From an archaeon (GTDB lineage: Archaea > Nanobdellota > Nanobdellia > Woesearchaeales > GW2011-AR9), in assembly GCA_030704845.1 (NCBI GenBank), contig JAUYKZ010000002.1, forward strand, positions 15,385 to 79,384: DNA of 64,000 nucleotides, read 5' to 3'. The first letter of the stretch is position 1. Each line of letters begins with the position of its first letter. The notes under the pieces were generated by a model. It was not told the DNA's origin. It did not search any database and saw only the letters and a list, made by a program, of their open reading frames with translations. Both the position numbers and the translations under genes were made by a program. Shown one piece after another: positions 43,732-61,660 of the stretch.

Positions 43732-43959
43732 GGCTATCACCTCCTTGTGTTAGTATTCTTTCTGTGGTGGGTGATTAATAAACCCTAGCCGTGGTTGTCC
43801 AGTGGGTAGTGGGCATGAGATTTACTTAGAAATAAGCGTAAAATGACGTTGTCTAGTGGGATGAATCGATATCATTAAAATTAATAAAATAGAATTAAAA
43901 AATTTATAAAAAAATTACACTAATTACAAAAATGAATAAATAAAATCAAAGGGAATAAA

Positions 43960-45177: not shown

Positions 45178-45356
45178 AGTTATATTCCTCGTGTATTTTA
45201 CGTAGGTTCTGAGTGAAATAGAAGTAGTGTATTAAACTGGTCTATTTCCGCCAAATTATCTACTGAACATATTCAGATTAGGCATCTTTTATAAACCTTT
45301 CGTTTTACCTAATTTTTAATCTTAATCTGATTATAAAGCAGTTAAAAATTTAAGAA

Positions 45357-45734
45357 TTAAACTCTAATCCCGTTAAGAACTCCTTCTTGACCTGGGCGAG
45401 AAGTTATTTTAACTTTACCCAATTTTGTCTCAACGATAGCTCCTTTCGTGATGATATTTCGACGAACAAGATGTGGATTTGCTGGATTTTCAACTACGTT
45501 AGTAATACTTGTTACCTCGGTTTTGCCTTTTGCTCCAGAAACATTAACCTTATCTGAAGAAAGAAGAGATCTTTTAGCGTTTCCACCAACAGTTCTGGTA
45601 ACACGCACTTTATTATTCTCGTCAAGTCTTGTGTTTGCTTGGTATCCGGCTAGTTCAGATTTCTTTTTAGAACGTGCAGCGTGGTATCTTCCACCAGATG
45701 CTTTTCTCTTTGACCGTAGTTGTGATCGTGCCAT
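45357..45734 (-). CDS. rps8e: 30S ribosomal protein eS8 (S8e)
   Basis: 125 aa. RKASGGRY, GGNAK and ENPANPHLVRRNIITKGAIVET..ITSRPGQEGVLNG are typical of archaeal S8e. Confidence 0.85.
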   Translation of the reverse strand: MARSQLRSKRKASGGRYHAARSKKKSELAGYQANTRLDENNKVRVTRTVGGNAKRSLLSSDKVNVSGAKGKTEVTSITNVVENPANPHLVRRNIITKGAIVETKLGKVKITSRPGQEGVLNGIRV

Positions 45735-45799
45735 TATGTATTCTTGGTATGGGGGTTATTTTTAAAGCTTTTGGTTTGTTTGGGCAATGTTCATCTAAA

Positions 45800-47698
45800 T
45801 TAATAATGGGGATTTCTTTTTCCACCAAAAATCTTCTTTTTGAGTGATTCTTTACCAGTCCAGTCGAGGGCATGTTCTAAAACTTCTTCGATGGTATTTA
45901 CTGGTATGATTTTAACCTTATCCATTTTTGATTTATCAATTACAATGTCTTGTAAGTTTGATTTAGGGACAATAATTGTTTTTATTCCGGTATCAATTGC
46001 AGCGTCAACTTTTGATGAAACGCCACCTACTGGAAGAACGTCTCCTCGGACAGATAATGAACCAGTCATGGCCACACTTTGTTTGATTGGTATACCTTTC
46101 AATGCAGATATAATTGCAGTAGCAACAGCAATTGAGGCTGAATCACCTTCCACTCCTTCATAAGTCTGAAGAAATTGAACGTAAATATCGTGAGTTTCTT
46201 TGATATCTTCACCAAAATAATGCATGATAATGGCGGAAACATTCTTGATAGCTTCTTTAGCAATTTCTCCTAATTTGCCGGTAGCAATGATTTCTGCTTT
46301 CTTACCGCCAACGGTAACTTCAGCTTCAATAGGTAGAAGAATTCCTGAACAAGCAGATCCGCTACCAATAACAGCTAAACCATTAACTCTTCCAATCCTC
46401 TGACCTTCCGTCATAATAACTTCATATTCCTTCTTTCGTTCGATATATTTATCAGCCATTTGTTGTTCTAATGGTCTAGCGAAATGTTTAGCTCTTCTTA
46501 CATGGTCAGCTGTAACTAATTCGGATTTATCTTCTTTTGCTAGATCTCCAGCAGCACGTACTAGGCCTCCCAATCCTCTTAAATGGAGAGTAAGATGTCC
46601 TTTTCTATTTGCTCTTTTTCTAGCTTCTTTAATTATTTCGCGTATAGCGTTAAGATCAAAATGGGGTATTTTTTCATTTTCTTTTTTCACTTCCTGAGCA
46701 ACAAATCGGGCAATTTTTAGCCGGTTTTCATTCGTGTCAAGCATAGTTTCATTCATGTAAATTTCATACCCATATCCCCGGATTCTACTTCGTAAGGCAG
46801 GATGCATGTTTTTTATTGTATCAAAATTCCCTGCAGCAACAAGAATAAAATCACATGGGACAGCTTCAGTTCTAACCATTGCTCCGGCTGATCTTTCTGA
46901 TTGTCCGGTTATTGGAAATTTCCTCTCTTGTAATGCGGTTAATAATTCCTGTTGAGTTCTTGGATGAAGCGTAGCTATTTCATCGACAAATAAAACGCCC
47001 ATGTGAGCTTTATGGATCATTCCCGCTACAACCCGCTGGTTGGCAGGTGTACCTAATCCGCCCGATTGAAATGGATCGTGAAGTACATCACCTAATAATG
47101 CTCCCGCATGTGCACCGGTAGCGTCAAAAAATGAAGCTTCTTTCTTTCCAAAATTGTCTACAATAACTTTTGGAGCAATAACTTTGCTTTGTTTAAACAT
47201 TCTTGGGCCCATATTCATGGTCATGGCAAAGATAGCCATGGCAACCATTCCAATAACTAGACTTGCAGAGGTCATGATTGCGGCTTCTATAGTTCCAAAT
47301 TTACTGTAATAAGACCACACCCACCATGGAGCAATTAAGACAACTATTAGAAAGATAAAAAAGAGGAAATTTCCATTTTTCAGAATTTCTTTACTATCAA
47401 CTAGGTAACTATTAGCTTCTTCTCGCCCTTTACCAGCTTTAACCTCTTTGATTATCGGATTATTTTCATCGTTAGGATTTGGATATGATAAGATGTCTTT
47501 AAGAGTTGATTTTGGAAGAAGTTCAGCTAGGGCTATTCCTAACATACTTTTACCGGTTCCGGGATCTCCAATCAATAAAACATGACGTCGTTGCAGGGCT
47601 GCTTTCTTAATTACGTTAACTGCTTCTTCTTGGCCGATAACTTGATCTATAAATACTTCTGGAACAACAATATTTTTGGTAGATTTCATGGTCGACAT
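45800..47698 (-). CDS. lonB: archaeal membrane-bound Lon protease (LonB)
   Basis: Walker A GDPGTGKS. The AAA+ module is interrupted by TM helices ([18 protein letters not shown].., MVAMAIFAM). C-terminal protease domain has [11 protein letters not shown] and [15 protein letters not shown]. Confidence 0.85.
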
Positions 47699-47765
47699 GC
47701 CTTAAGAACCCCTCAAAGCACATTTAGGGGTTGTATTTAAAAAGGTTATGACTAAATTTATCAGA

Positions 47766-48506
47766 TTATTGGTTCTTATTCTTTCCAATCATCTTAACTG
47801 TAATTTCAGAAAATGCTTCGTCTTGGGTCATATCGATTTTCTTCTGATTTTCTAAATGTAACAAAGGCAAAAAGGTATAAACTTTATCTTCTCTTCTTGC
47901 TCTCGGTGGAAGTAACCGGGAGAAAGTAACGTCTTCAGTTTGATCTTTATTTAAATAATAAGCTATTTTATGATAAACGTCTCTGATTATTTCCATGATA
48001 TCAATTTTCTTTTCTAAATGTTGAGTAAATTCAACAGGTCTTATCTTTTCAAGAATTCTTTTCTTTGACTGCATGGCTCTTTGAAGAGCGTTAACTAAAT
48101 CGTTAATGGAAACTTTTCTATTTCTGGGTTGGGGATTTCTAGGAATAAGGGTATATTGTTGTTTTTCTTTTCGTTCTCCGTTACCACCAAGAGAATCAAA
48201 GAATTCTTCGTCGATATCTTCAAATTCATCTTGTTGATTAATTAATGCATCTAACTTGGTAATATCTTTATCAATTAAATGAGCACATTTTATTTTAAGA
48301 AGAATAGCTGCGGCAAGAACAATTTTCCCAGAAATTTTAAGATCGTGCTCTTGCATTTTCTTAATAACTTCTATATACTTCTGGGTTAGAAGGGTAATAT
48401 CAACATCCCATGGATCCATTTCTTCGCTTTTAACTAAATCGTAAATAATAGTTTTCCAGCTCAGTTCTTCCTCCTTAAGAAGCATATCAAATAGTTTTTG
48501 TTGCAT
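47766..48506 (-). CDS. scpA: segregation and condensation protein A (kleisin ScpA)-like
   Basis: The N-terminal LFDMLLKEEELSWKTIIYDLVKSEEMDPWDVDITLLTQKYIEVI pattern and the size are typical of archaeal ScpA. Confidence 0.55.
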   Translation of the reverse strand: MQQKLFDMLLKEEELSWKTIIYDLVKSEEMDPWDVDITLLTQKYIEVIKKMQEHDLKISGKIVLAAAILLKIKCAHLIDKDITKLDALINQQDEFEDIDEEFFDSLGGNGERKEKQQYTLIPRNPQPRNRKVSINDLVNALQRAMQSKKRILEKIRPVEFTQHLEKKIDIMEIIRDVYHKIAYYLNKDQTEDVTFSRLLPPRARREDKVYTFLPLLHLENQKKIDMTQDEAFSEITVKMIGKNKNQ

Positions 48507-48556
48507 GGATAAAAGAGAATAAATTCTGATTTATAAATAGTGTGGTTTAAAAATGA

Positions 48557-48705
48557 GTGGGCCCAGCCGGAATTTCGGTTACGAAACTCTCGAACCGGCG
48601 ATCAACGCCTAGCTTATCCTTACAAGGAATGTAAGGGCGCTGTCATTTGCGAGCACGCAAACTCAAAAACATTGTTTTTGCATGTAGCCGCTAGACCATG
48701 GGCCC
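48557..48705 (-). tRNA. tRNA-Val (anticodon TAC) with three putative introns
   Basis: Minus-strand read is GGGCCCA-TG-GTCT-AGCGGCTA[40 nt]TGAC-A-GCGCC-CTTACA[19 nt]A-GGCGT-TGATC-GCCGG-TTCGA[17 nt]TT-CCGGC-TGGGCCC-A. The exons sum to 73 nt and all four stems pair. CCA is not encoded. Putative introns lie at 48645..48684, 48610..48628 and 48572..48588. Confidence 0.8.
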
Positions 48706-48891
48706 AACTATATAGCCAATTTTTCCATTCATTTATTAAGATTTTGGTTATATCTGCTATTATCACTTCCCAAACCTATATAAACAAAAACATTCTTTTC
48801 TTGATAAAAAAGAGGTAAGTATGAAATTTAGTGTAAAAGATACAAAGAAAGAGCTGTACCTTTCTGGTATCTTTGCCACGGAGTTATGTAA

Positions 48892-50370
48892 ATGAAATTC
48901 CGTGTCAAAGATATGGATATTGCTACCGGTGGTATTCATATTGCTATTCTTAATGAAAAAGATGCAATCAAACTAGATTTGAGATCTGGAGATCGCATAT
49001 TTCTAATTAAAGGAAGAAAAAAGACGACTTGCATCTTAGATATCTCTGAATCACGAAAAGCAGTTCCTCCTGGGAAAATAGGCTTATTTGAAGAAGTTTT
49101 AGACATTTTAAATGTTCGGCAAGGTAGTATTGTTGACCTCAAATTTACTGGGAAACCGGAATCAGTTATTCATATCCGTGACAAACTTTATGGTAAAGAG
49201 TTATCTTTTGCAGAATTAGATCACATCATTCGAGATATTTCTTCTAATGCTCTTACAGATATTGAAAAAACTTATTTTGTGGCATCTGGATTCGTCAATG
49301 GTTGGACTATTGATGAAGTTGTAAATATGTCGAAAGCCATGGTTAAAAATGGAAATCAAATTAAATTTAAAGGAATAACTCTTGATAAACATTGTATCGG
49401 CGGAATTCCGGGTAATAGAACTACAATGATCGTCGTTCCGATTATTGCAGCGGCCGGTTTTACAATCCCCAAAACAAGCTCTAGAGCAATTACTTCTCCG
49501 GCCGGTACAGCCGATACTATGGAATGTTTAGCTAAAGTAGAATTATCTCAGAAAAAAATCAAATCAATTGTAAAAAAAACAAAAGCATGTATTGTTCATG
49601 GTGGTGCAATGAATTTAGCTCCTGCCGACGACAAAATTATTGAAGTTGAACATCCTCTCTCGATAGATCCGGAAGGTCAATTGTTAGCTTCAGTGATGGC
49701 TAAAAAGCATTCGGTAAATGCAAATCACGTTTTAATTGATATTCCGATGGGCCAAAGTTCGAAAGCTAAAACCCGTAAAGATGCACGTCATTTAAGAAAA
49801 CAATTTATCAAGGTAGGTAAAAGGTTAAACATGAATGTTAAAGTGATTATTACCGATGGTTCTCATCCGATTGGAAATGGTATAGGTCCATTGTTAGAAG
49901 CTGAAGATGTAATGGCTGTATTACGTAACGATCCTCTTGCTCCTCAGGAGTTGAAAGAGAAAGCAATAAATATGGCCGGTTCATTGTTAGAAATGACTGG
50001 GAAGTATAGTCGTAGAGAAGCGCATAAATTGGCTTCAAATATTCTAGAATCCGGAAAAGCTTTACGCAAGATGGAAGATATCATCAAAGCTCAAGGTAAA
50101 CAGAAAAAATTTCATCTAGGAGAATTTAGGTATCATGTTATCTCTCGACAGAAAGGAAAAGTTAAAGAGATTGATAACGAAGTAATTGCTAAAATTGCTC
50201 GCTTGGCTGGTGCTCCGCAAGATAAAGGTTCAGGGTTATACTTGGTTAAAAATATTAAAGATAGGGTATTGTCTGGGGATACTTTGTACACAATCTATGC
50301 TGAAAATAAATTTAAATTAAATTTAGCTAAAGATTTTGTTAAAAAGAATAAAGGGTATTTGATTAAATAG
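48892..50370 (+). CDS. AMP phosphorylase (archaeal thymidine-phosphorylase family, DeoA-like)
   Basis: 492 aa. N-terminal MKFRVKDMDIATGG..ILNEKDA extension typical of archaeal AMP phosphorylase. Includes DKHCIGGIPGNRTT and TSSRAITSPAGTADT motifs. Confidence 0.75.
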   Translation: MKFRVKDMDIATGGIHIAILNEKDAIKLDLRSGDRIFLIKGRKKTTCILDISESRKAVPPGKIGLFEEVLDILNVRQGSIVDLKFTGKPESVIHIRDKLYGKELSFAELDHIIRDISSNALTDIEKTYFVASGFVNGWTIDEVVNMSKAMVKNGNQIKFKGITLDKHCIGGIPGNRTTMIVVPIIAAAGFTIPKTSSRAITSPAGTADTMECLAKVELSQKKIKSIVKKTKACIVHGGAMNLAPADDKIIEVEHPLSIDPEGQLLASVMAKKHSVNANHVLIDIPMGQSSKAKTRKDARHLRKQFIKVGKRLNMNVKVIITDGSHPIGNGIGPLLEAEDVMAVLRNDPLAPQELKEKAINMAGSLLEMTGKYSRREAHKLASNILESGKALRKMEDIIKAQGKQKKFHLGEFRYHVISRQKGKVKEIDNEVIAKIARLAGAPQDKGSGLYLVKNIKDRVLSGDTLYTIYAENKFKLNLAKDFVKKNKGYLIK

Positions 50371-50799
50371 TTAATCTAATCCAGTACTACCAAATCCACC
50401 TTCTCCTCGTTCTGTATTATCATCTAACTCTGTAACTTCGATAACTTCTTTTTGTTCAACAGGTTGAATTAACATTTGAGCAAATTTCTTTCCTAATTCA
50501 ATAGTATGAGTCTCATTAGAAAGATTATGGATCAAAATTTTTATTTCTCCCCGATAACCGGAATCAATTACTCCCGCCATAGTTTTCAATCCTTGGTTAG
50601 TTGCAATCCCGGATTTGTCCCAAATTAAACCTACATAACCGAGAGGAATAGCCATGGCAATTCCCGTAGGAATTAATTTTCTTTCTTGAGGCATGATAGT
50701 TGTTGTTTCATTAGCGTAGAAATCCATCCCGGCATCCCCTAAATTTGCATATTTAGGAATAATTGCATTTTCACATAACTTTTTTATTTTAATTGTCAT
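50371..50799 (-). CDS. dut: dUTP diphosphatase (trimeric dUTPase)
   Basis: 142 aa. AGMDF, GVIDSGYRGEI and the C-terminal RGEGGFGSTG motif. Confidence 0.85.
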   Translation of the reverse strand: MTIKIKKLCENAIIPKYANLGDAGMDFYANETTTIMPQERKLIPTGIAMAIPLGYVGLIWDKSGIATNQGLKTMAGVIDSGYRGEIKILIHNLSNETHTIELGKKFAQMLIQPVEQKEVIEVTELDDNTERGEGGFGSTGLD

Positions 50800-51010
50800 T
50801 TTGAATTGTAATCCTATAATAAATTTAAGGATTGTTGTTCTGGATAGATGAAATAAAGGAATTTTGTTATTGTTTACAATGTACTATGTTTTAACACACA
50901 TCGAAAATCTTATAACTCGGTTATGAAAAAGATTTGATTAATCTTGGTAAGTTTTTTAAATAAGGTTAATAATTAGATGTTTTGGGTGGTTTTCTGGTTT
51001 ACTGTTTAAG

Positions 51011-51994
51011 ATGATTGACTATATTGTTCCGGAATTGAAACAGAATCCTCACGATTGGGATACGTGGCTTTTTTATTCTGACCTTCTTCAAGGTCAAGGT
51101 AATCCTCTTGGAGAATTAATTGCTTTAGAACATCGTTTATTTTTCTCTTCAGGTCCTCTTGTAGGTTCTGATCATTCTGCTTTAATGGAAGCTAGAGAAA
51201 AAGCTCGGAATGGTGTAAAAGAAGATCTGAAGAAAAAAGGTGTTTCTCATGTTCTTGATTGGTATCACGGCCTTCCTCGTGATGTTGATTTTAATGGTAA
51301 TAATGAACAGAAATCTGAATTAGTTAAATGGAATCCTTTCATTCGGTGTATTGGGACAATTCAAGGATCTTACGGGGATTTCTCTCAACTAGTCCCTGGC
51401 ACCAGAAGACACGTTGACGAATTGTGGAATGATAGGCTGGTTAATCCTGAACTGAGAGATAAATGTTTTTATACTGCGGATGGAGCAATTTATTTCATGC
51501 GCGATGGCAAACCTTATTTTGCTTTTACTAGAGAAAGAAGCAATCCTGCTTTCAAGAATCTTAACGAAGCATGTAAGCAATTACAAGATAATGTTAATTA
51601 TACTGTTTCTGAAGAAGATTTAGAATCCGCTCTTGCTGATCCAGAAACGGAATTATTTGAGTTATCTAAATTAAACGGGAATAACTCCTTCTTTACCGAA
51701 TTATCTACTAAAAATCCTAAACTAGATTCTCTTAGTGAGGATGGAAGAAGGTTAATTCATCGTGTTTATGGCAAAGATAATTTTGATGAAGTCATGTCTA
51801 TGTTAGCTAAACGGTGGTCTATAACAAGAACTTACGTTTTGAATCCTGATTATGTTCGTGAACATGCTTCTGCTGGTGCATTCGGGCGGGCGTCCTGGTT
51901 GGGCAGCAATAGCTTCCTCGCAAGTGATTGCGGTATCAATCTTCATTACCGCCTTCGTGGGGTAGTTCAATCCGAGCCCGCAGGCGAGAGTTGA
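51011..51994 (+). CDS. DGR variable (target) protein
   Basis: 327 aa. The C-terminal FGRASWLGSNSFLASDCGINLHYRLRGV is encoded by the VR. The pattern (..SW..variable..R.RG.) resembles the C-type-lectin/FGE-like VR scaffold. The N-terminal KQNPHDWDTWLFYSDLLQGQGNPLGELIALEHRL resembles the TIGR02996-type segment. No signal peptide or TM helix. Confidence 0.75.
   Translation: MIDYIVPELKQNPHDWDTWLFYSDLLQGQGNPLGELIALEHRLFFSSGPLVGSDHSALMEAREKARNGVKEDLKKKGVSHVLDWYHGLPRDVDFNGNNEQKSELVKWNPFIRCIGTIQGSYGDFSQLVPGTRRHVDELWNDRLVNPELRDKCFYTADGAIYFMRDGKPYFAFTRERSNPAFKNLNEACKQLQDNVNYTVSEEDLESALADPETELFELSKLNGNNSFFTELSTKNPKLDSLSEDGRRLIHRVYGKDNFDEVMSMLAKRWSITRTYVLNPDYVREHASAGAFGRASWLGSNSFLASDCGINLHYRLRGVVQSEPAGES
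51880..51965 (+). repeat. DGR variable repeat (VR)
   Basis: 86 nt aligned by hand to 52272..52357 at a constant offset of 392 nt. There are 14 differences, all at template A positions. Confidence 0.85.
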
Positions 51995-52012
51995 GTTTAA
52001 AGGAGAGTTTTT

Positions 52013-52029
52013 AACCGCCGGAGGCGGTT
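52013..52029 (+). promoter_or_regulatory. GC-rich hairpin about 50 nt downstream of VR (terminator and/or DGR target-recognition stem-loop)
   Basis: AACCGCC-GGA-GGCGGTT, a 7-bp stem in an AT-rich context, 19 nt after the target stop codon. Confidence 0.4.
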
Positions 52030-52271
52030 CGAAAATAATATAGGCTAGATAATAGAAATATTATTAAAAATCTTAGATTCATTAGTTTTTCTCAGCACTC
52101 CTTATTTGAGGAGAGGAGATGCTGGACTACACGCTCTTGTGCTATGATCGAGGTGACTTGGTTATGAAACTTTCATTATAGACTAATTCTATAGTGATAA
52201 GACAGCTATGACAAATTACTTAAGAGTAATCTTGAAGTAGTAGAGAAAGTATACAGCATTAAGAGCTACTA

Positions 52272-52357
52272 ATTCGGGCGGGCGTCCTGGTTGAGCAACA
52301 ATAACTTCAACGCAAATGATTACAATATCAATAATCATAACCGCCTTCGTGGAATAG
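52272..52357 (+). repeat. DGR template repeat (TR)
   Basis: In the target frame it reads FGRASWLSNNNFNANDYNINNHNRLRG, with AAY-rich variable codons. It contains 28 A, of which 14 are substituted in VR. It ends in the shared GC-rich block CCGCCTTCGTGG. Confidence 0.85.
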
Positions 52358-52773
52358 CCCAGCATCTGCTGAGACCTTTTCAATTGGCAGGATATAGAAA
52401 TCTTTGGCAGGAAGTCTGTGATTATAGTAATCTATTGTTAGCATATAAGAAAGCACGAAAGCACAAAACTCAGCGTCCATATGTTCTTGAGTTCGAGGAA
52501 AATCTTACAGAAAACCTAAAATTATTACAAACAGAACTTTTTCTTCATTCTTATCGTCCACGACCATTAGAGACTTTCATTCTTAGAGATCCAAAGACAA
52601 GAAAGATTAGCAGATCAGATTTCAGAGATCGTGTTGTTCATCATGCTTTATGTAATATCATTGAACCTTTCTTTGAAAAAGTTTTCATTTATGATTCTTA
52701 TGCTAACAGAAAAGGCAAGGGAACACTAAAAGCAATAGAAAGATTTGAAGATTTTTATCGTAAGTTATACTAA
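52291..52773 (+). pseudogene. DGR-type reverse transcriptase, N-terminal stump (about 130 aa of RT), truncated at a MITE
   Basis: ..YSNLLLAYKKARKHK..PLETFILRDPKTRKISRSDFRDRVVHHALCNIIEP..IYDSYANRKGKGTLKAIERF.. is about two-thirds identical by hand alignment (75/115) to the N-terminus of the full RT at 61661..63367. It lacks the GNLTSQ and YVDD motifs. There is no ATG in the frame; the track start is TTG at 52291 inside the TR, and another TTG lies at 52384. The stop TAA is supplied by the MITE end. Confidence 0.8.
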
Positions 52774-52949
52774 AGTGCCAAAGCTTTCGAACTTATTTTT
52801 GGCACTTTATATATATAAAATGTGTTAATATACTCAACGCTAAATGAAATTTGGAACTTAATTCATTTAGCGTTTGTATATACCAACGAAAAGTTCACAA
52901 AAATACTTTTCGTTCAGTATATATTCGAAATCTAACGCATTTTAGTATA
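52766..52949 (+). mobile_element. MITE-like element, copy 4, carrying a nested second MITE
   Basis: The left 65 nt and right 28 nt match the 93-bp element (1 mismatch). It is interrupted at an internal TA. Confidence 0.85.
52831..52919 (+). mobile_element. nested 89-bp MITE (second subfamily) inside copy 4
   Basis: TIR is TACTCAACG / CGTTCAGTA. TA is duplicated on both sides (52829..52830 and 52920..52921). Two hairpins (AACGCTAAATGAA..TTCATTTAGCGTT and AACGAAAAGT..ACTTTTCGTT) are separated by TATATA. It has the same 89-nt length and architecture as the host MITE core. Confidence 0.75.
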
Positions 52950-53187
52950 CAATTAATTTAAGGATTATTGTTCTTGATGAACCACATCAAGAGAGTAACT
53001 GCCAAGTAACAACAAAGTCGAAACATTTATATTTCCGCTACAGATTAATAGCGCTTTCCCCAAAATCGCTACAAGCGGATGAGCTTGATATTTGGAGCGT
53101 GTCTGATCCTTTTTTCTGAACATCGTCAGAAATGACCAGTCTTATATGGTTAGTGTAAGGGCTTGGATATATAGTTTGTGTCCACCT

Positions 53188-53214
53188 TGTCAAGTCTGTC
53201 AAGTGTACAAGTCC
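53188..53214 (+). repeat. three tandem 9-mers TGTCAAGTC / TGTCAAGTG / TACAAGTCC
   Basis: Located 57 nt downstream of the integrase stop. Related boxes flank the other side of the same gene: ATCAAGTCC at 54301..54309 and the inverted GACTTGACA at 54344..54352. Confidence 0.5.
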
Positions 53215-53270
53215 ACTCTCTAAGATGATAAGAATTCTATTTCAATCAATATAAAATTATCTGCCGCATT

Positions 53271-54233
53271 TTATCTTTCCATAGAGCTTACTACAACAGC
53301 ATTCTCCTGCTGAACAGGCCCTCCTTTTCTCATCTGACGACTCTCATATAATGCCCTATTCTGCATTAGTTTCTCAGCTTCTTCTACAGCTATTTTACTC
53401 GTGTTTTTGACGTTATCTGGGCTTCCATTACTGATAATAATTGATTGTTTGACTAATTCCTTAAGTTCAGATATTTCGTCTTTAAGAGCCTTCATTTGAG
53501 CCCCTTCCTGCTCTGGAATGGTGTTGAATACCTCATTGACTATATCTCTCTTGGCCACGAGGCTTGTTGTTAGATATCTTTCTGTACTTCTTAGGTTTTT
53601 GTGTCTTCCTGTTATTTGAGCTGCAAATACGCCTCTCCTGTCGCAGATCTTCTGCAGATAATAGTGCCTGAGTGTATGATAGCTTAAAACTGAGAGAGTA
53701 TGGCCATCTTTTGTCATTCCATACTTATGATCTAAACCAGCTTTCTTTCTCGTATCTTCAAGATGTTTTCTGATGGTTTGTTCTGCTAGGTGCTTTTCTT
53801 TATGGCCTGACTTCATTACTCTCATTCTCCAGAAAAGGTAATATTCTCCTCTGAGTTCATTTTGATTGATGTCTTTGCCATGACTTCCATTAAGAACTAT
53901 TTCTGACTTGTATTTCATGATGTGATCTTTTATCCGTCTCATCATTTCATCAGGAATTATGATCTTCTCAAATCGTTCTTTATTCTTTTGTTCAGGTAGA
54001 GTGAGTGTCTTGTCCATGAAGTCTATGTCTTCAATTCTTATTCTGCAGGTTTCAGCGCTTCTTAGGCCAAGCATTGCTGCACAGCAGTAAACATTTTCCC
54101 AAAAGAACACATATTTCTCTTCTTCTATAAATGGAATTGCAGAGAGGAATCTACCGAGTTGTTCTTCTGTGATTGTCTTTTCCTTGGCTTCGTTCCTGTG
54201 CCCAAATTGCATCCTCCCATTGTTGACTTTCAT
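53271..54233 (-). CDS. tyrosine recombinase / integrase (copy 1)
   Basis: 320 aa. Box I LGLRSAETCRIRIEDID, HTLRHYY, and GRHKNLRSTERY with the presumed nucleophile Tyr. Confidence 0.8.
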   Translation of the reverse strand: MKVNNGRMQFGHRNEAKEKTITEEQLGRFLSAIPFIEEEKYVFFWENVYCCAAMLGLRSAETCRIRIEDIDFMDKTLTLPEQKNKERFEKIIIPDEMMRRIKDHIMKYKSEIVLNGSHGKDINQNELRGEYYLFWRMRVMKSGHKEKHLAEQTIRKHLEDTRKKAGLDHKYGMTKDGHTLSVLSYHTLRHYYLQKICDRRGVFAAQITGRHKNLRSTERYLTTSLVAKRDIVNEVFNTIPEQEGAQMKALKDEISELKELVKQSIIISNGSPDNVKNTSKIAVEEAEKLMQNRALYESRQMRKGGPVQQENAVVVSSMER

Positions 54234-54466
54234 GTTGTAGAGTAACCCCTCTCATAAGAATATTCGTGTCCATTGTCATTTATAATTCCCGTGTCCCCAT
54301 ATCAAGTCCAAGAAAACCACAGAGGAAGATAGTGGGAAAAATAGACTTGACAGTATCTGACAAATGCAGAAATTCTGTAGAAAATAGGTATTTTGAGGAC
54401 AAGATTTATATATGCTGATAGTCTCACAAAGTATAGACATTAGCGGAAATTACCGAGGAGAACACA

Positions 54467-54634
54467 ATGCCAGAGAAAATAAAGATGAAAACAAAAAACC
54501 TGATCATAGAGCCAGGAAACATAGAAGTCAAAACGGTTGTAAAATCTGGAAATGGAGCAGTAATCCCATACACCAAAAAATACATCGGAAAAGAAGTTTA
54601 TGTAATCTTAAAAGAGAAATGCAAGACTGAGTAA
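54467..54634 (+). CDS. small AbrB/SpoVT-like (swapped-hairpin) protein, 55 aa
   Basis: Not in the track (under 60 aa). MPEKIKMKTKNLIIEPGNIEVKTVVKSGNGAVIPYTKKYIGKEVYVILKEKCKTE has the G-N-x-x-x-I-P..G..V.V pattern. Preferred over the out-of-frame track ORF 54412..54630. Confidence 0.45.
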   Translation: MPEKIKMKTKNLIIEPGNIEVKTVVKSGNGAVIPYTKKYIGKEVYVILKEKCKTE

Positions 54635-54710
54635 ATGATCATAACGGGATTGAGTATTCTCGCAAAAGTACCCTCAATCCCGATGAGTAAAACCATAGGA
54701 GGTCATACCC

Positions 54711-55028
54711 ATGAAGGGAAATAAACACAAAGATAGATATAAAAATGTCGGTTCAGAACCGAAAAAAGAACAACCAGCAACAGAACAGAGCATTTTGCCA
54801 CATCGAGAAATTGCCTATCAAGTTCTAAAAGATAATGGCAAGCCAATGCATTACAAAGAGATAACTGCAGAAGTTCTCAAAAGAAGCAAATCAGTAGGAA
54901 CTACACCACAGAATAGTATTTTCTCGAGATTAATTACTGACACGCAGAAACGCTTTGTAAAGACTGCAAAAGGTACATTCGGATTAACTGAATGGAATTC
55001 TAAGGAGGCTGAGAAAAATGCCAAATGA
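54711..55028 (+). CDS. HARE-HTH domain protein
   Basis: LPHREIAYQVLKDNGKPMHYKEITAEVLKR...TPQNSIFSRLITD..RFVKTAKGTFGLTEW matches the HARE-HTH (RpoE-delta N-terminal-like) pattern. Confidence 0.6.
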   Translation: MKGNKHKDRYKNVGSEPKKEQPATEQSILPHREIAYQVLKDNGKPMHYKEITAEVLKRSKSVGTTPQNSIFSRLITDTQKRFVKTAKGTFGLTEWNSKEAEKNAK

Positions 55029-55362
55029 AACAGGATTAATCTCGGCTGTTAATCAGAGAGAAAGCAACAAGTACGGAGTCAAGATCAATGATGAATGGTA
55101 CGGTGGATATGGTGTTTGTCCTGTAAAGAAAGGCGATACTGCTTCTGTTGAATACAAGCTAAATGGTAAGTACAGAAATATCATAAAGATAGAAAGAGAA
55201 AAAGAAGCAGAAGCCCAACCAAACAACAAAGATAATGTTGTGGAAGATATTCATCTCCAAGTTTGTCTTAAAGCAGCTGCACAAATCTTAACAGGAACAA
55301 AAACGCCAGCATCAGAAGTAGCACAATACTCAAGAGAACTTCTAAAAGAGATCTGGGGATGA
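55018..55362 (+). CDS. hypothetical protein
   Basis: 114 aa, overlapping the upstream gene by 11 nt (operon-like). No motif recognised. Confidence 0.45.
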   Translation: MPNETGLISAVNQRESNKYGVKINDEWYGGYGVCPVKKGDTASVEYKLNGKYRNIIKIEREKEAEAQPNNKDNVVEDIHLQVCLKAAAQILTGTKTPASEVAQYSRELLKEIWG

Positions 55363-55367
55363 TTTAG

Positions 55368-56249
55368 ATGGCTCAAGACGCAAAAGCAAAATCAATCACA
55401 GAGGCACAATTTAATATGTTCATGGAAGCAGTAAGAGAAATCGAGAAAAGATATGACGATGATTATGTGAAATTCTGGGAGAATACTTACTATTGTGCAA
55501 GCGAACTCGGATTAAGAAGCGTCGAAGTATGCAAGATAAAAGTTGAACACATTGACTTCTTTGAAAAGACTTTGCTTTTACCAGAACAGAAAAATAAAGA
55601 AAAATACGAGAAGATTATAGTCCCTGATTTTATGGTTGACAGATTCAAAGATCATATTTTGAATTACAAATCACAGATTGCACTTGCTGATAATTATCTT
55701 TTCTGGAGACAAAGATATGGAAGAACTTCAAGATGTGGAAGAACCCCCACATCTGGAAAATATGTTTTAGGGAGAGAACAACACATGAGTCCTGGAACAA
55801 TAAGAACCCATACAATTAGAGCAAGAAAGAAAGCAGGACTCGACCATAAATATGGCAAAAGCAATTCAGGCCATCAATTATCTGTATTGAGTTTTCACAC
55901 ATTAAGACACTTTTATTTACAAAAAATTTGTGATAAGAGAGGTGTTTTTGCTGCACAAATCTGTGGAAGACACAGAAATCTTAGAAGCACTGAGAGATAC
56001 ATTAAATCAAGCTTACAAGCAAAAAGAGATATCGTGAATGCAGTCTTTAACACAACTGAAGAGAAGCATTCTGTGGAAATTGATCAATTAAAGAATCAAA
56101 TTACTGAGCTGACAAATTTAGTAAAAGTTATCGCTACACCACAATCAGCTGCATGTACTCCTGCAACACACAAGTTTGCAGAAGAAGAAGCGATCATGAT
56201 GCTTCAAAACAATTTATTCAATCAAAAACGAAGAGTGGAGAGAGATTAA
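55368..56249 (+). CDS. tyrosine recombinase / integrase (copy 2, paralog of 53271..54233)
   Basis: 293 aa. LGLRSVEVCKIKVEHID, HTLRHFY and GRHRNLRSTERY. Long collinear identity with copy 1 (for example KKAGLDHKYG....GH.LSVLS.HTLRH.YLQKICD.RGVFAAQI.GRH.NLRSTERY). Confidence 0.8.
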   Translation: MAQDAKAKSITEAQFNMFMEAVREIEKRYDDDYVKFWENTYYCASELGLRSVEVCKIKVEHIDFFEKTLLLPEQKNKEKYEKIIVPDFMVDRFKDHILNYKSQIALADNYLFWRQRYGRTSRCGRTPTSGKYVLGREQHMSPGTIRTHTIRARKKAGLDHKYGKSNSGHQLSVLSFHTLRHFYLQKICDKRGVFAAQICGRHRNLRSTERYIKSSLQAKRDIVNAVFNTTEEKHSVEIDQLKNQITELTNLVKVIATPQSAACTPATHKFAEEEAIMMLQNNLFNQKRRVERD

Positions 56250-56250
56250 A

Positions 56251-56460
56251 ATGAGAGAATGGAACTGTCCAAAATGCAAGAAAACAGTAACTTGTCATCC
56301 TGGAACAAGTAGACGAGACAATAAGACAAAAATATGTTCTGAATGTTGTACTGACGAGGCAATATTTGATTTTCAAGTAGCTCTTTCAAAACAGAAAAAG
56401 AAAATCTTTCCAGAGAATTTTATTGCTCTGGAGAAAGAATGGCTCAAGGAGGTAAACTAA
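56251..56460 (+). CDS. small zinc-ribbon protein
   Basis: 69 aa with CPKC ... CSECC cysteine pairs. Confidence 0.45.
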   Translation: MREWNCPKCKKTVTCHPGTSRRDNKTKICSECCTDEAIFDFQVALSKQKKKIFPENFIALEKEWLKEVN

Positions 56461-56461
56461 G

Positions 56462-56839
56462 ATGACATTAGATGTAAGAATAGGTAAAAAAATAGGAGAT
56501 TCTTCTGTTGAACAATGTCCTGATGCTAAAGAAAACATTTGTGATCCACTGCATACAAATTGGCCAACAGAATCGTACAGAAGTGGAAATAACTTTTCAT
56601 TCTGGAAGTTTTTTACAAAAAACAAGGACTTGAAAGCAATATATTTGGAGATGAGAAAACATCCAAATACAAATGATTTGGATTTAGCACTAATCAAACC
56701 ATTTCTAAAACGTATAAACAAACTAAAAGATGCTGATTTTGTCAATGAAGTAGATAAGGATAGATTGAAGTGGCTAAAATATTGGAGTAACAAAGCAGTT
56801 GAATTATATGGAAACGAAGCAGCTATTTTATTTAGTTAA
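56462..56839 (+). CDS. hypothetical protein
   Basis: 125 aa, tightly packed after the upstream gene. No motif recognised. Confidence 0.4.
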   Translation: MTLDVRIGKKIGDSSVEQCPDAKENICDPLHTNWPTESYRSGNNFSFWKFFTKNKDLKAIYLEMRKHPNTNDLDLALIKPFLKRINKLKDADFVNEVDKDRLKWLKYWSNKAVELYGNEAAILFS

Positions 56840-56851
56840 GGAGAGTGGACA

Positions 56852-56989
56852 ATGGTTGATAAATATGAAAAAAAGCATATCAAAGCCATCAAGAACTGTG
56901 TAACAGATGACGATTTGGCTGTTGTAATTAACAGAATCTATGATGATGGTTTTCAGGATGGAGCAAACGAAGGTTCAAAATCCAAATAA
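56852..56989 (+). CDS. small ORF (45 aa)
   Basis: Not in the track. AAGGAGAG box upstream of the ATG at 56852. Product is MVDKYEKKHIKAIKNCVTDDDLAVVINRIYDDGFQDGANEGSKSK. Confidence 0.3.
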   Translation: MVDKYEKKHIKAIKNCVTDDDLAVVINRIYDDGFQDGANEGSKSK

Positions 56990-57023
56990 TTTCTTTATTC
57001 TTTCCCAAAGTGAGATCTTGATC

Positions 57024-57245
57024 TTATGTTTGCTTGTGATTTTCTGATATGTTTTTTTGGTCATTTAAAGCACTCTCCTTACGTCTTTTAATCTCATTGT
57101 CTAGGAATGTACTAAAGGCCATCAAATCCTTTGTATTATGGTTTATTTTGTATTTGAAACCTACCCTGTGCATGTCAATAAGCTCTTTCAGAGTTACTAT
57201 TATCCCCCCTTGTGACGATAATTTCATTGTATCTCCTTTATGCAA
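57024..57245 (-). CDS. hypothetical protein
   Basis: 73-aa ORF. No motif recognised. Confidence 0.3.
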   Translation of the reverse strand: MHKGDTMKLSSQGGIIVTLKELIDMHRVGFKYKINHNTKDLMAFSTFLDNEIKRRKESALNDQKNISENHKQT

Positions 57246-57596
57246 CTCATAACAGCTTCAACAACTGTAACAGATACTGCATTTCCACATTGAGTATATC
57301 TTTGAGTTTCTGCAACTCCTTCGGTCCAATTATCTGGAAACCCTTGTAATCTTTCTGTCTCAAGTGGTGTGAGTCTGCGTATATATCTCTGCAATAAACG
57401 GAATATGATTTCCTCCTGTTTTGCTTGTGGGTATTGTCGGAGCAATTCCCGATATCGAATAGATTCTTTTGCTTTGATAGTCGCCGTCATAGATGAGTTC
57501 CCACCCATTACTGCCATGATTATTTAGATCGTCTTCTGCTATTTCTTTGAGTCTCTTGTTTACAACTTTGTATTTCCAATTTGCCAATTTAATCAC
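57224..57596 (-). pseudogene. remnant of a DNA cytosine-5 methyltransferase (C-terminal part only, frameshifted) behind a DUF4177-like N-terminus
   Basis: Frame A (57360..57596) has WKYKVV..LNNHGSNGWELI, then QSKRIYSISGIAPTIPTSKTGGN (TRD-end-like). Frame B (57224..57517) has IRRLTPLETERLQGFPDNW....QCGNAVSVTVV (motifs IX-X). The frames switch near 57385..57395. Catalytic motifs I-VI (FxGxG, PCQ, ENV) are absent. Confidence 0.6.
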
Positions 57597-57825
57597 CTGG
57601 AGGTTCGATGTCTATGATTTTTCCTGTAGTCCTGCTTTCGAGTGCAATATCAGAGTCTGTGATGCTAAGTTCGATGAATATCTTTTTTCTTTCAGCAACT
57701 CCTTGATTGTCTACAAGCCATTTCAAGACAACCCCTTTCTTGTCTAAGCTGTGAATTATTAGAGAGTTCTTGACGTAATCTGTAAGATTCTCAATTTCTG
57801 TCATTTTGTCTTGAATTGTTGCCAT
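57589..57825 (-). CDS. hypothetical protein
   Basis: 78 aa, between the structural genes and the MTase remnant. No motif recognised. Confidence 0.35.
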   Translation of the reverse strand: MATIQDKMTEIENLTDYVKNSLIIHSLDKKGVVLKWLVDNQGVAERKKIFIELSITDSDIALESRTTGKIIDIEPPGD

Positions 57826-57828
57826 TGT

Positions 57829-58584
57829 TTATTCCTCGTATCCCTCAAATCTTGCGAATACTTCTTTACTTCCTCCGCCGAGATTTGTTCTCCTAAGAAT
57901 TATTTTGTGAGTACTGTTTCCTGTAATCTTTTCAGATAAGTCAAACTTGTCAGAGCTTCCATTAACGTAAAGTGTGGCGATTAAGATTAATGTGACTCCA
58001 TCTCCTGAGGGATTGTCGTATAAGGTTACTTTGCATGCTTTTGTTGCCTCTTCACTTCCTGCAAGAAGTCTCCCTATGACAAGTTTCTTTCCATTTGTTA
58101 TTGTGTATACTGAATCTGTATTGCCTGAGACAGTTCCGAAAGCAGTAATTATCACAGGTGTTGTTGAAGCTGGGGGTGTGGCAGGAGGAGTTGCGACAAG
58201 CAGTCTTCCAGAACTATCTACAGAAGCTTTAAGCAATGGATTATTTGAATCTCTAATTATGAAAGAATCGATTAAAGTAAGATCTGATTTTACAAGTAAT
58301 TTGCCGTCAACATCAACTTTTGCTTTGATGTTAGAAATAGGATCTTTGATAGTAAATGAATCAATTTGTACTATATCATTTTTTATTAGCAGTTTTCCAT
58401 CTGCATCTACTATTGCCTGACTGTTTGTTGTTGCATCCTTTATTGAAATTGAATCAATACTGACGTTTCCTTGAATATTTGCGTTAATGCTTCCATTAGG
58501 TTCGACTTGAATACTGCTCACTATCTGCTTTAATTCAGTCACTGTTCCTTTCAATTGTTCAAGTATTTCTGTGTCGATTCCCAT
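57829..58584 (-). CDS. repeat-containing structural protein (fiber/decoration-like)
   Basis: Three tandem repeats of about 29 aa (IDSISIKDATTNSQAIVDADGKLLIKND / IDSFTIKDPISNIKAKVDVDGKLLVKSD / IDSFIIRDSNNPLLKASVDSSGRLLVATP). They are followed by a PATPPASTTP linker and a beta-rich C-terminal domain. Its start overlaps the stop of the capsid gene. Confidence 0.45.
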   Translation of the reverse strand: MGIDTEILEQLKGTVTELKQIVSSIQVEPNGSINANIQGNVSIDSISIKDATTNSQAIVDADGKLLIKNDIVQIDSFTIKDPISNIKAKVDVDGKLLVKSDLTLIDSFIIRDSNNPLLKASVDSSGRLLVATPPATPPASTTPVIITAFGTVSGNTDSVYTITNGKKLVIGRLLAGSEEATKACKVTLYDNPSGDGVTLILIATLYVNGSSDKFDLSEKITGNSTHKIILRRTNLGGGSKEVFARFEGYEE

Positions 58585-59321
58585 TAATCTATCACCGCCA
58601 CAGCATTTCCATTGAGAACTATTGGAGCAATTCTTTCTCTAAGTAAAAATCCTTTTTTACTTTGCCAAGGATCTGAATAATCAGATATCTCAAGAGGAAC
58701 TCTTTCAATTAGAAGGCCTGCATTTATCGAATCAAGAATTATAACAACATTCTTAGGAACAGAAGTATCGATGATAACTTCAATCGCATAAGTGATTAAT
58801 TTATCTTTTAGTTCATCTCGTTGTCTTAATGATTCTGCAATCTTTGGATTAAGTAGAATTACATCAGGATGATATTTGTTGTCTTCAATAAACTTTATTG
58901 CCGAAATAAAGTTGTCAAGTATTGGTTTCTCTCTAACATGATCTTTTGTTTCGGTAGTTATCTTTTTTCCTGCTCCAGCAATCAATGTTTCAATAACTAA
59001 TTTATTTTCAATCTCTGCAAGAATAAAACTTTCATTGATAGATTTTTGAAGCATCTCATTGATTCCATTATCTTCAAAGCATTCTTCAGAAAAAAGAATT
59101 GTGGCCTTAATAGTCAAAGGAAAGACAACAACAGATTCGACATCAAAAAGAGATATTGGAGCTGTACCCAAATTGGGTACGATTGCACCGTTCACATTCT
59201 TGATTTTACTTATCTTTATTGCAGAGCCATCAGTCTGCTGTTGCAGTCTTAATACTCTTGGACCTATACGAAACTTTCCTGCTTCAATTAGCACTTGAGA
59301 CTTGACAGTAGATAGGTCCAT
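58584..59321 (-). CDS. HK97-fold major capsid protein paralog B
   Basis: 245 aa, collinear with 59360..60166. The C-terminus ILDSINAGLLIERVPLEISDYSDPWQSKKGFLLRERIAPIVLNGNAVAVI follows the HK97/encapsulin C-terminal pattern. Confidence 0.55.
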   Translation of the reverse strand: MDLSTVKSQVLIEAGKFRIGPRVLRLQQQTDGSAIKISKIKNVNGAIVPNLGTAPISLFDVESVVVFPLTIKATILFSEECFEDNGINEMLQKSINESFILAEIENKLVIETLIAGAGKKITTETKDHVREKPILDNFISAIKFIEDNKYHPDVILLNPKIAESLRQRDELKDKLITYAIEVIIDTSVPKNVVIILDSINAGLLIERVPLEISDYSDPWQSKKGFLLRERIAPIVLNGNAVAVID

Positions 59322-59359
59322 GTAGCATTACCTCTAAAAAAATAATTTGATGACCTATT

Positions 59360-60166
59360 TTACAAGATCATCTTTGAGACTGCGTTGTCATCAAGTACTG
59401 CAGGTGCAACTCTCTCTGTTATAGTAACTCCAGCTGCAAGATCTCTTAATGGATCTGTGAAGTTCTCTATGGACAAAGGTCGTCTTTCAACCAGCACACA
59501 TGCTCTACTGTCTAAAGCAAGTATTGTTCCTGGCTCTACTGCTGTGGTTTCAACTACTTGAAGACCAGCAACATTTCCCACGATGCCTGTCTCGTCAAGT
59601 CTATCAAAAGCTTTGTATCCTTTGCCGATAAGGTCTTTCTCGAGCTTTGCCAAGTCATCAGGGTGTGCAACAAGCCATGCAGCTTTGTAGCTGTGTCTGT
59701 TTACTGCATTTCTCAAAGTTACAACGTCTTCTTGGACAAATTGTCCTGCAGTCTTTGGCGAGACTGTATTCGTTGTCTTCATCAATACTCGGAAGATTTC
59801 TTCATCTTCTTTTCTTGCAATGTCTTCTGCAGCCATGTCAGCTTTTAATCTGACAACATCAAATGCTGAATCTTCAATTGCTTCTTTCGGTATAGCAAAT
59901 GCTTTTCCGATCTTATATGGTGTCACGACAATTTCATTGAATGTGCTGACATCCATAGGGATTGCTCCCAGTTCAGGAATTACATAAGCTTGTCCTGCTC
60001 CCATCTTAGGGATTTTCAGTGCAGATCCTTCACTCAAAGTGATCAGTTTCACAATTTTTCTTCCTACTCTTTCTCTGCCTGCAACCTTAAACACGTTGGA
60101 GTCTATGACTTCCTTGATGAGAGGTGCAGCGTCTTGACTTGAAAATAGTTCTTGCATTGTTTTCAT
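59360..60166 (-). CDS. HK97-fold major capsid protein paralog A
   Basis: 268 aa. ARKEDEEIFRVL (the conserved acidic ..ED..if helix), AAWLVAHPDDLAKLEKD (..vl.P.dw..l) and the C-terminal ALDSRACVLVERRPLSIENFTDPLRDLAAGVTITERVAPAVLDDNAV match the HK97 capsid/encapsulin layout. It lies downstream of the protease, scaffold and decoration genes. Confidence 0.6.
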   Translation of the reverse strand: MKTMQELFSSQDAAPLIKEVIDSNVFKVAGRERVGRKIVKLITLSEGSALKIPKMGAGQAYVIPELGAIPMDVSTFNEIVVTPYKIGKAFAIPKEAIEDSAFDVVRLKADMAAEDIARKEDEEIFRVLMKTTNTVSPKTAGQFVQEDVVTLRNAVNRHSYKAAWLVAHPDDLAKLEKDLIGKGYKAFDRLDETGIVGNVAGLQVVETTAVEPGTILALDSRACVLVERRPLSIENFTDPLRDLAAGVTITERVAPAVLDDNAVSKMIL

Positions 60167-60180
60167 TTTGCCTCTCCTCC

Positions 60181-60555
60181 TTATTTGACTATTTTTACAG
60201 GAATCTTTCTTGTTACTGGGCTACCACCAGTCGAGTTGTCTATCTTCTCGTATGCTTTGGCCACTGCTACTCCTGTGTTTTTTGCTTGCAGTGTTTTGTT
60301 GTCTTTGACTTCAAGTTCATCCCCAACATTCAGGGTTGCTGAAGCTGCAACTGATACATCCACATAGAATGTTCCGATGCATCCTACTGATGCAGGGTTT
60401 TCTTGTGGTGTGTCTTTTAAGCAGACTCCAAGTATGTCCGCTTGTGCAGATGCTGGTTGAACTGTTAGTCCAACAAGCTGTCCTTTTGTAAGGTCTGCAT
60501 TTGCAACGAGCATGCTTGGGTTCTTTCCGTCGTCAATCATGATATCGTATGTCAT
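60181..60555 (-). CDS. head decoration-like protein (DUF2190-like)
   Basis: 124 aa. ..ADLTKGQLVGL....ILGVCLKD......GTFYVDV......LNVGDELEV.. follows the DUF2190 pattern. Positioned between the scaffold and capsid genes. Confidence 0.45.
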   Translation of the reverse strand: MTYDIMIDDGKNPSMLVANADLTKGQLVGLTVQPASAQADILGVCLKDTPQENPASVGCIGTFYVDVSVAASATLNVGDELEVKDNKTLQAKNTGVAVAKAYEKIDNSTGGSPVTRKIPVKIVK

Positions 60556-60568
60556 TTTGATTCACCTC

Positions 60569-61631: not shown

Positions 61632-61660
61632 AACATCAGAAATCTGTTTTTTTCTTAATA

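Follow-up and report, generated by a model that had tools for sequence, protein, structure and literature searches.

A diversity-generating retroelement in a woesearchaeal genome whose reverse transcriptase gene ends at a nested mobile-element insertion

Introduction

The cassettes of diversity-generating retroelements (DGRs) have been surveyed by Wu et al. 2018 (PMC5758913) and by Roux et al. 2021 (PMC8144416). The locus described here is to be compared, in the first place, with the compact two-gene cassettes without Avd of the DPANN archaea and the candidate phyla radiation (CPR). It is found around 51-53 kb of a stretch of 64,000 nucleotides from a member of the Woesearchaeales (assembly GCA_030704845.1, contig JAUYKZ010000002.1, positions 15,385 to 79,384 of the forward strand), the whole of which is referred to below as the window, and it consists, in this order, of a target gene with a variable repeat (VR), a template RNA with a template repeat (TR), and a gene for a reverse transcriptase (RT). 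The window is AT-rich (~30-40% GC). The locus resembles the compact cassettes in the C-terminal position of its VR, in the restriction of the VR/TR differences to adenines and in the placement of the TR immediately upstream of the RT. However, it differs from them in that its RT is without everything past residue ~129, where the gene runs into a miniature inverted-repeat transposable element (MITE), and the cassette is thus not autonomous.

Two further bodies of work bear on the template RNA of this locus. The Bordetella DGR requires a duplex between the sequences located upstream and downstream of its TR, and such a duplex is predicted in many other DGRs (bioRxiv 10.1101/2023.10.23.563531). 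In comparison with the BPP-1 DGR (Handa et al., bioRxiv 10.1101/2023.10.23.563531), the window locus is alike in having a structured RNA that brackets the template and a duplex of the upstream and downstream sequences, but it differs in that the structured domain precedes the TR and is not found in the downstream spacer, and in that the cassette contains no Avd gene; the RNA scaffold of the window is a predicted one, derived from sequence and fold. The RNA motifs RT-11 and RT-16 were described by Weinberg et al. 2017 as RT-associated, and of the motifs in that work only RT-10 was assigned to a DGR, the others being a matter of speculation (PMC5737381).

The RT gene of the cassette ends at a nested MITE

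The features concerned are the following, with all coordinates being those of the window.
52384 to 52773, plus strand: RT stump, residues 1-129 of a DGR RT, followed by a Tyr codon and a stop codon from the MITE
52766 to 52949, plus strand: outer 93-bp MITE, with arms at 52766-52830 and 52920-52949 that are split by the nested element
52831 to 52919, plus strand: inner 89-bp MITE, its boundaries given by three uninterrupted outer copies

A reading of the window made from its sequence only (the sequence-only reading) had claimed that the RT is a mere N-terminal stump which ends at a TAA of the MITE, and this is borne out. The 3' end of the stump reads ...CGT AAG TTA TAC TAA, and its TAA is located inside the MITE terminus TATACTAA. 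The open reading frame (ORF) listed for the stump extends from 52291 to 52773, but its TTG at 52291 falls inside the TR, and the start that matches those of the relatives is likely the TTG at 52384. The stump ORF shows 63% identity to residues 8-130 of the full RT that is encoded elsewhere in the window (61661-63367), the stump shows 63-68% identity to residues 1-129 of two frame-restored relatives, and its N-terminus is 60-77% identical to those of many DPANN RTs. No stop codon or frameshift is present in its 129 codons, and in an alignment of 20 sequences all 39 family-invariant columns (39/39) are kept. The similarity to RTs reaches the Leu codon (TTA) whose TA flanks the MITE, and it is absent beyond this point.

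In a permissive tblastn search of the window with restored full-length relatives (word size 2, E <=10) only the stump and the RT at 61661-63367 were matched, which agrees with the earlier statement that no frame downstream of the MITE continues the RT. What is missing can be seen in L006, the closest intact relative among the loci that were fetched, the RT of which shows 75% identity to the stump and the cassette of which has the same layout. Beyond the position of the stump breakpoint the RT of L006 proceeds as ...FRKKLSQNNTSQVFILKSDIRHYFDEVDH...GMPLGNLTSQ...YVDD..., for 240 further residues. The RT of the window has lost about two thirds of its length, inclusive of the catalytic core, and the break falls exactly at the nested MITE. 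When the composite MITE and one TA are removed in silico, the reconstructed gene reads ...FEDFYRKLQLI*, with a stop three codons on. Because the reconstructed empty site terminates in this manner, whereas L006 continues through YVDD, a simple insertion is insufficient as an explanation, as had also been proposed before, and the comparison indicates that at least 0.7 kb of DNA on the right-hand side of the MITE would also have been lost, by being either deleted or moved.

The MITE at which the RT ends is a genuine mobile repeat. A BLAST search of the window with the 184-bp block 52766-52949 identified three other copies of the outer element, all of them uninterrupted.
138 to 230, plus strand: intact 93-bp MITE copy, intergenic
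6846 to 6938, plus strand: intact 93-bp MITE copy, intergenic
18986 to 19078, minus strand: intact 93-bp MITE copy, intergenic

Two of the copies are identical, and the third copy as well as the copy at the RT locus are each one base off (0-2 nt among the 4 copies). The element has sharp ends, with 13-nt terminal inverted repeats (TATACTAAAGTGC / TATACTAAAATGC), and the claim of a real 93-bp MITE is in this way confirmed. The description of a second MITE of related architecture within it likewise holds, as the second hairpin of the locus copy has in its loop a stretch of 91 bp that the three others lack, made up of an 89-bp element and a duplicated TA (52829-30 and 52920-21). The three intact outer copies represent the empty site of the nested element, and due to this the TA duplication is demonstrated. 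All 4 outer copies are flanked by TA on either side, but a duplication in comparison with an empty site is seen for the inner element only. The terminal inverted repeats of the inner element are TATACTCAACG / TATACTGAACG, and it shares with the outer element the TATACT...AGTATA ends and the presence of two hairpins separated by TATA. No second copy of the inner MITE was found in the window or in the 99 fetched loci, MITE copies were absent from the other fetched loci, and no transposase was detected among the 20 window ORFs that were scanned. A 12-nt resemblance between the right flanks of the locus MITE and of the copy ending at 19078 was also considered, but it shows no extension and is likely an AT-rich chance match.

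TA-targeting MITEs (Stowaway-like) derive from elements of the IS630/Tc1-mariner type, whereas hairpin-ended derivatives of IS200/IS605 insert without a duplication. The window elements are similar to the IS630/Tc1-mariner-type MITEs in their small size, lack of coding capacity, terminal inverted repeats and TA duplication, and also in their AT-rich targets, the many near-identical copies and the nesting; they differ in having no autonomous partner among the ORFs scanned. The TA duplication suggests an IS630/mariner-type source, but the hairpin ends and the two-hairpin layout would also fit derivatives of IS200/IS605.

The target gene, the variable repeat and the template repeat

51011 to 51994, plus strand: DGR target gene, an ORF of 327 amino acids with the VR at its C-terminus
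51880 to 51965, plus strand: VR of 86 nt, within the 3' part of the ORF 51011-51994
52013 to 52029, plus strand: GC-rich hairpin AACCGCC-GGA-GGCGGTT, read from the sequence, directly after the target stop codon
52272 to 52357, plus strand: TR of 86 nt, located 392 nt downstream of the VR

Except for its RT, the cassette has the characteristics by which DGRs are recognized, viz. TR/VR differences confined to adenines, a VR in the 3' part of the target gene and a structured RNA flanking the TR; a cognate RT with a catalytic core (motifs 3-7, including YxDD) is what it lacks. In the ungapped alignment of the 86 nt of the VR and TR there are 14 mismatches, all of which (14/14) are at TR adenines. 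The TR contains 28 A, and at the 58 positions with other bases the two repeats are identical (58/58); with randomly placed mismatches the chance of all 14 falling on A is (28/86)^14, or ~1e-7. The earlier statement that the VR and TR show no decay at non-A positions is therefore correct.

The target gene yielded no match in a Pfam search, no member of its family is found in the GTDB representative genomes, and in this small protein family it is the C-termini that form the variable part. The hairpin that follows its stop codon is a putative terminator or homing hairpin. No ORF lies between the target gene and the RT, and no Avd/HRDC accessory gene was seen, although a profile search for Avd was not run; the related loci L002, L004 and L006 are likewise two-gene cassettes.

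The same metagenome-assembled genome (MAG; locus tags Q8Q01_) encodes at least five paralogues of the target protein (P0122, P0123, P0125, P0126 and P0129). Three of these five are cut at contig ends, one of the three being on the contig of the window itself. P0122 and P0123 have VR-like C-termini with residues that are unreachable by changes at adenines from the TR described here, and because these residues could not be produced from this TR, other TRs are implied.

The template RNA module

52088 to 52378, plus strand: DGR template RNA module, comprising the 5' closing strand, the RT-11/RT-16 domain, the TR and the 3' closing strand
52091 to 52098, plus strand: 5' strand of the closing helix, TCTCAGCA, pairing with 52368-52375
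52093 to 52245, plus strand: RT-11 RNA motif (RF03106) and, more weakly, RT-16 (RF03019), from an Rfam search, below the gathering scores
52368 to 52375, plus strand: 3' strand of the closing helix, TGCTGAGA, pairing with 52091-52098

The target gene and the TR are separated by ~270 nt, which hold an RNA domain and are not a featureless spacer. A match to RT-11 covers the full length of the model directly upstream of the TR (model positions 1-147/147; 108.2 bits, E = 7.7e-24), although with a score under the gathering score of 143.5, and on RT-16 the same RNA obtains 41.6 bits, again less than the gathering score (50). L006, where the RT is intact, reaches 114 bits for RT-11 and is likewise under the gathering score, while the RNAs of other relatives score 65-100 bits on RT-16, which is over the gathering score of that model. 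RNAs of the RT-16 type accompany RTs that are closely related to that of the stump (73-77% identity), and due to this the RNA subtype is not tightly tied to the RT subclade. No Rfam matches at the gathering threshold and no tRNA genes were found anywhere in the window.

Of 65 relatives, 22 have the motif GGRCTACAYG at a distance of 170-300 nt upstream of the start of the RT, and in the window it occurs a single time, as GGACTACACG at 52124-52133. The predicted fold of the module has a minimum free energy of -95.2 kcal/mol and a z-score of -5.6, with the closing helix being formed, and in it the conserved GGRCUA (GGACUA here) pairs with UAGYC (UAGCC here) at the 3' end of the TR. This RNA architecture recurs in 25 related loci as well as in the viral contig L090 (125-400, minus strand). 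Across the 25 loci the closing helix is kept through many compensatory changes, and the helix is longer in cognate than in non-cognate pairs of strands (mean 9.35 vs 7.45, p = 3e-8). Based on these comparisons, our own reading is that the RT-11/RT-16 motifs would provide these archaeal DGRs with the scaffold of their template RNA, with the helix enclosing both the domain and the TR. The template module and its closing helix end before the start codon of the RT, and loss of the RT gene thus need not affect the RNA. By its sequence, the template RNA of the window is intact.

The RT break falls in a fragile loop of related RTs

A metagenome scan yielded 80 loci with related RTs, which together with L002 and L004 make 82 loci. 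Complete RTs in a single frame are found in 45 of these, whereas in 28 the RT is frame-shifted. Most of the frameshifts coincide with runs of 7-12 G or with (GA)n repeats, and they are located in two loops, viz. loop 1 at residues ~176-190, just before GMPLGNLTSQ, and loop 2 at residues ~128-136, just after FKRK. The break of the window RT falls in the second of these loops, in which poly-G, (GA)n or insertions are also present in L026, L049, L058, L062, L065 and L082. Among the genes with a G-run >=7 and a frame that can be judged, the consensus assembly shows 17 of 19 to be out of frame. In L002 (6547-6556, 10 G) and L004 (6568-6579, 12 G) a run of 11 G would restore an RT of 370-385 amino acids, and 26 further frame-shifted loci are found among L006-L085. 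By their sequence pattern, these repeats look like a basis for phase-variable or slippage-dependent expression of the RT; a search of the literature for DGRs combined with phase variation and homopolymeric tracts brought up nothing but an unrelated paper. The idea that shortness is general among the close relatives of the stump, which was suggested by a top-120 list with short entries only, was discarded, as this list is unrepresentative of the family, in which the RT is complete in 45 of the 82 loci.

In many relatives the RT is divided between two ORFs, and it could be supposed that the RT of the window is also deliberately split, with its C-terminal half encoded elsewhere. However, in these relatives the two ORFs are contiguous and overlap at a simple-sequence repeat, none of them has a remote half, and besides the full RT at 61661-63367 nothing RT-like is present elsewhere in the window, all of which makes a split gene exceedingly unlikely.

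A second and independent RT stump is present in L063 (Ga0208375_1006604, 3500-4812). It ends at residue 123 (...ERFDY*) and adjoins a 48-nt palindrome, GAAAATCGGCGC...GCGCCGATTTTC, with no RT sequence beyond it; an intron-containing tRNA gene follows ~340 nt after the end of the stump. L063 retains its VR, TR and RT-11 RNA, and 16 of the 19 differences between its VR and TR are at A.

Proposed history of the locus

The account that we consider probable is one in which insertion of a MITE was followed by a deletion, with the cassette now being frozen as its default state. The 93-bp TA-targeting MITE would have landed in the Leu codon (TTA) after ...FYRK, at a site that would be a surface loop of the RT tolerant of insertions. 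Subsequently, the DNA that adjoined the MITE on its right would have been lost, either through a MITE-adjacent deletion or through recombination between MITE copies, and the loss would have comprised the remaining ~240 RT codons (~0.7 kb) together with further downstream sequence. The second MITE would have inserted later, into the hairpin loop of the first. The order of these events, their mechanism and their age are what we infer from the structure described above.

The inactivation looks recent, because the MITE copies differ by ~1% or less, because the 129-codon stump is without decay at its invariant residues, because the non-A positions of the VR and TR have remained identical, and because the RT-11 score of the RNA (108 bits) is similar to that at the intact L006 (114 bits). 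Unless the template RNA is used by another RT, the VR is most likely frozen in the state in which its last diversification left it. The cassette, the MITE family and the RNA motif each add a new member to a known class, and the loss of a DGR RT to mobile elements is ordinary in kind.

However, several observations weigh against this account. The absence of decay fits continued use of the cassette equally well. The comparison with an uninterrupted allele that had been proposed in the sequence-only reading came to nothing, as among 5.8 billion proteins no such allele turned up and the best non-self relative of the stump is 76-80% identical. The reciprocal product of the rearrangement is not found in the window, and the deletion is one that we infer and do not observe. 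The TA flanks do not tell which MITE ends were originally partners. Lastly, the region 50978-54997, in which the junctions lie, is uncovered in the Logan assembly of SRR13727534, which was made independently from the same population. The Logan contigs are 100% identical to the window at 40371-50977 and 54998-64000, both stopping at these points, and the exact target protein as well as integrase 1 (53271-54233) are absent from this assembly; as to whether the VR is still being diversified, the absence of the target protein has no weight in either direction.

The last of these observations also speaks for a different explanation, viz. that the junction is an artefact, in which the assembler entered the repeated 63-bp arm of the MITE and left it at another copy, the real RT being either uninterrupted or carrying a plain MITE. 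In support of this, the junctions lie in a repeat, the MITE is multi-copy with nearly identical copies, and the MAG has several contigs with an end within a target paralogue, so that the assembly is repeat-sensitive; the breaks of the Logan contigs at 50977 and 54998 are themselves probably repeat-induced. However, the MITE family of the region is also that of the host portion of the contig, the locus copy is made distinctive by its nested composite, neither a near-identical RT N-terminus nor a continuation of it is present in the protein collection mentioned above, and an independent stump of similar extent is known from L063, so that structures of this kind do exist. We regard an artefact as improbable in the light of these facts.

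The neighbouring integrase element

52950 to 53019, unstranded: spacer of 70 bp between the MITE and the integrative element
53020 to 57505, unstranded: integrative element module with two tyrosine integrases (Pfam Phage_integrase)
53271 to 54233, minus strand: integrase 1, Phage_integrase
55368 to 56249, plus strand: integrase 2, Phage_integrase

In explaining the loss of the RT core, the sequence-only reading had left a choice between a deletion or rearrangement and removal by the integration of the neighbouring element; the results agree with the former and make the latter unlikely. The two divergent integrases are ~50% identical to each other, and the block 53020-57505 shows 85-92% DNA identity to sequences in L093, a Joint Genome Institute (JGI) contig, and in L095, L096 and L097, which are three Woesearchaeota bins with integrases 92-94% identical to that of the window. 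In the latter three loci the similarity to the window starts at 53019-53021, whereas the left flanks are unrelated in each, and this common start indicates that the left end of the element is at ~53019. The spacer is outside the block that is common to these loci, and a tblastn search of it revealed no RT similarity in any frame. No att-like direct repeats of >=15 nt were found around 52950-53290, and the right end of the element was not found.

If integration of this element or of the provirus described below had removed the RT core, the remainder of the RT may be expected at the far end of the element. The integrase gene is only ~320 bp away from the MITE and the far end is outside the sequence covered, both of which are compatible with such an event. 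However, the RT break coincides with the end of the MITE and not with that of the element, the element end is separated from the MITE by 70 bp devoid of RT similarity, and the same left end is observed next to unrelated flanks in three other genomes, with no att-like repeat at the junction. Integration as the cause is accordingly very unlikely, and the neighbouring element probably did not remove the RT core.

As to the element itself, L093 carries a restriction-modification insert between the two integrases, and the 97-aa methylase ORF of the window (57224-57517) is a deleted remnant of a C5 methylase gene that is complete in L096. A scan of viral contigs with integrase 1 returned nothing.

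The provirus RT and the possibility of service in trans

57493 to 61673, minus strand: provirus head module, with an HK97-type capsid protein (Pfam Phage_capsid) and neighbouring head-type genes
61661 to 63367, minus strand: complete RT of 568 amino acids, with RVT_1 and a C-terminal HTH_40

The head module is 73-93% identical to five IMG/VR viral contigs, and an RT (72% identical) is present in one of these five, viz. L090. L086-L089 are without an RT gene, and in L086-L088 the DNA similarity stops at the 3' end of the RT gene. A scan of viral contigs with the full RT returned nothing. L090 contains one TR and two VRs (168-248, 487-567 and 3389-3469) in paralogous genes, on the strand opposite to that of the RT and 3-6 kb from it. 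Its template RNA, located ~6 kb from the RT, matches RT-16 with 84.6 bits and has the same closing-helix sequence as the RNA of the stump cassette, and the landmarks of the two RNAs are alike (TGTCTCAGC...GGAACTACACG...GGCTAC-TR-GGAATAG...GCTGAGACA). Because this RNA is encoded far from the RT, the RT of L090 must find it in trans. The Logan contig L001 (SRR13727534) is identical to the window over 54998-64000 and extends 2.5 kb further, and its positions 1-130, which are ~2.4-2.5 kb past the end of the window, align with the VRs of L090. This indicates that the provirus of the window owns a DGR, with a VR just outside the window. The view that the full RT is an orphan in need of the TR described here is rejected for this reason, as this RT comes with a DGR and a VR of its own. 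P0019, which was considered as a second RT of the source genome, comes from another genome and another sample. Between the start of the full RT and a divergent AbrB-like ORF (63404-63679) there is an imperfect palindrome with ACAGTATAT-like units (63423-63491), which could be a putative operator.

These observations bear on the main alternative to a frozen cassette, in which the locus is a working non-autonomous DGR whose template RNA is served in trans, either by the RT of the provirus 9 kb away or by the RT of a paralogous cassette, with the VR still being diversified. That one of recent inactivation and use by another RT should apply had been stated before, and both have survived the present tests. 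In favor of service in trans, the whole apparatus required in cis is intact (the VR, the RT-11 domain, the closing helix and the TR), the provirus RT 9 kb away is of the same clade, the RT of L090 finds an RNA ~6 kb away on the other strand, with this RNA being a related RT-16 scaffold, and the loose link of RNA subtype with RT subclade, as seen in the 73-77% relatives with RT-16-type RNAs, points in the same direction. Further, the Bordetella DGR works with avd, TR and brt supplied in trans (Wu et al. 2018, PMC5758913), the stump cassette L063 has most of its VR/TR differences still at A (16/19), and the same MAG has the VR-bearing paralogues P0122 and P0123. However, the RT of the provirus is only 63% identical to the stump and has a VR type of its own, the RNA of the window remains under the gathering score on RT-16, P0122 and P0123 imply other TRs, and all of the signs of intactness are equally explained by a recent inactivation. 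Based on these considerations, service in trans is plausible but is the less likely explanation. Somewhat more doubtful still is the wider proposal that the host target and its RT-11 RNA may have been kept diversifying by an RT acting in trans, possibly that of the provirus, and that stumps of the L063 type may be a recurring and selected state. The relationship of SINEs and LINEs (short and long interspersed nuclear elements) offers an analogy only, in that an RNA template module has no RT of its own and a related RT is encoded nearby; it differs in that the cDNA of a DGR homes to the VR and makes no new copies, and the borrowing is in the present case hypothetical.

In a different part of the window, a 242-nt direct repeat with 77% identity (9580-9820 and 10741-10981) is seen between two neighbouring glycosyltransferase-TPR genes that appear to be tandem paralogues.

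Significance

Under the account of MITE insertion followed by deletion, this locus would be a clean and datable example of the death of a DGR, brought about by a MITE in a fragile loop of the RT and a subsequent deletion, in the setting of a DPANN archaeon crowded with mobile elements. The comparisons also place the RT-11 and RT-16 motifs, as proposed above, as the template-RNA scaffold in these archaeal DGRs. Surveys of DGRs start from the RT gene, and cassettes that consist only of a target gene and a template RNA are invisible to them. If service in trans should prove to be true, then the number of diversified genes would be underestimated, and if this service is provided by the RT of the provirus, viruses could control the hypermutation of a host gene.

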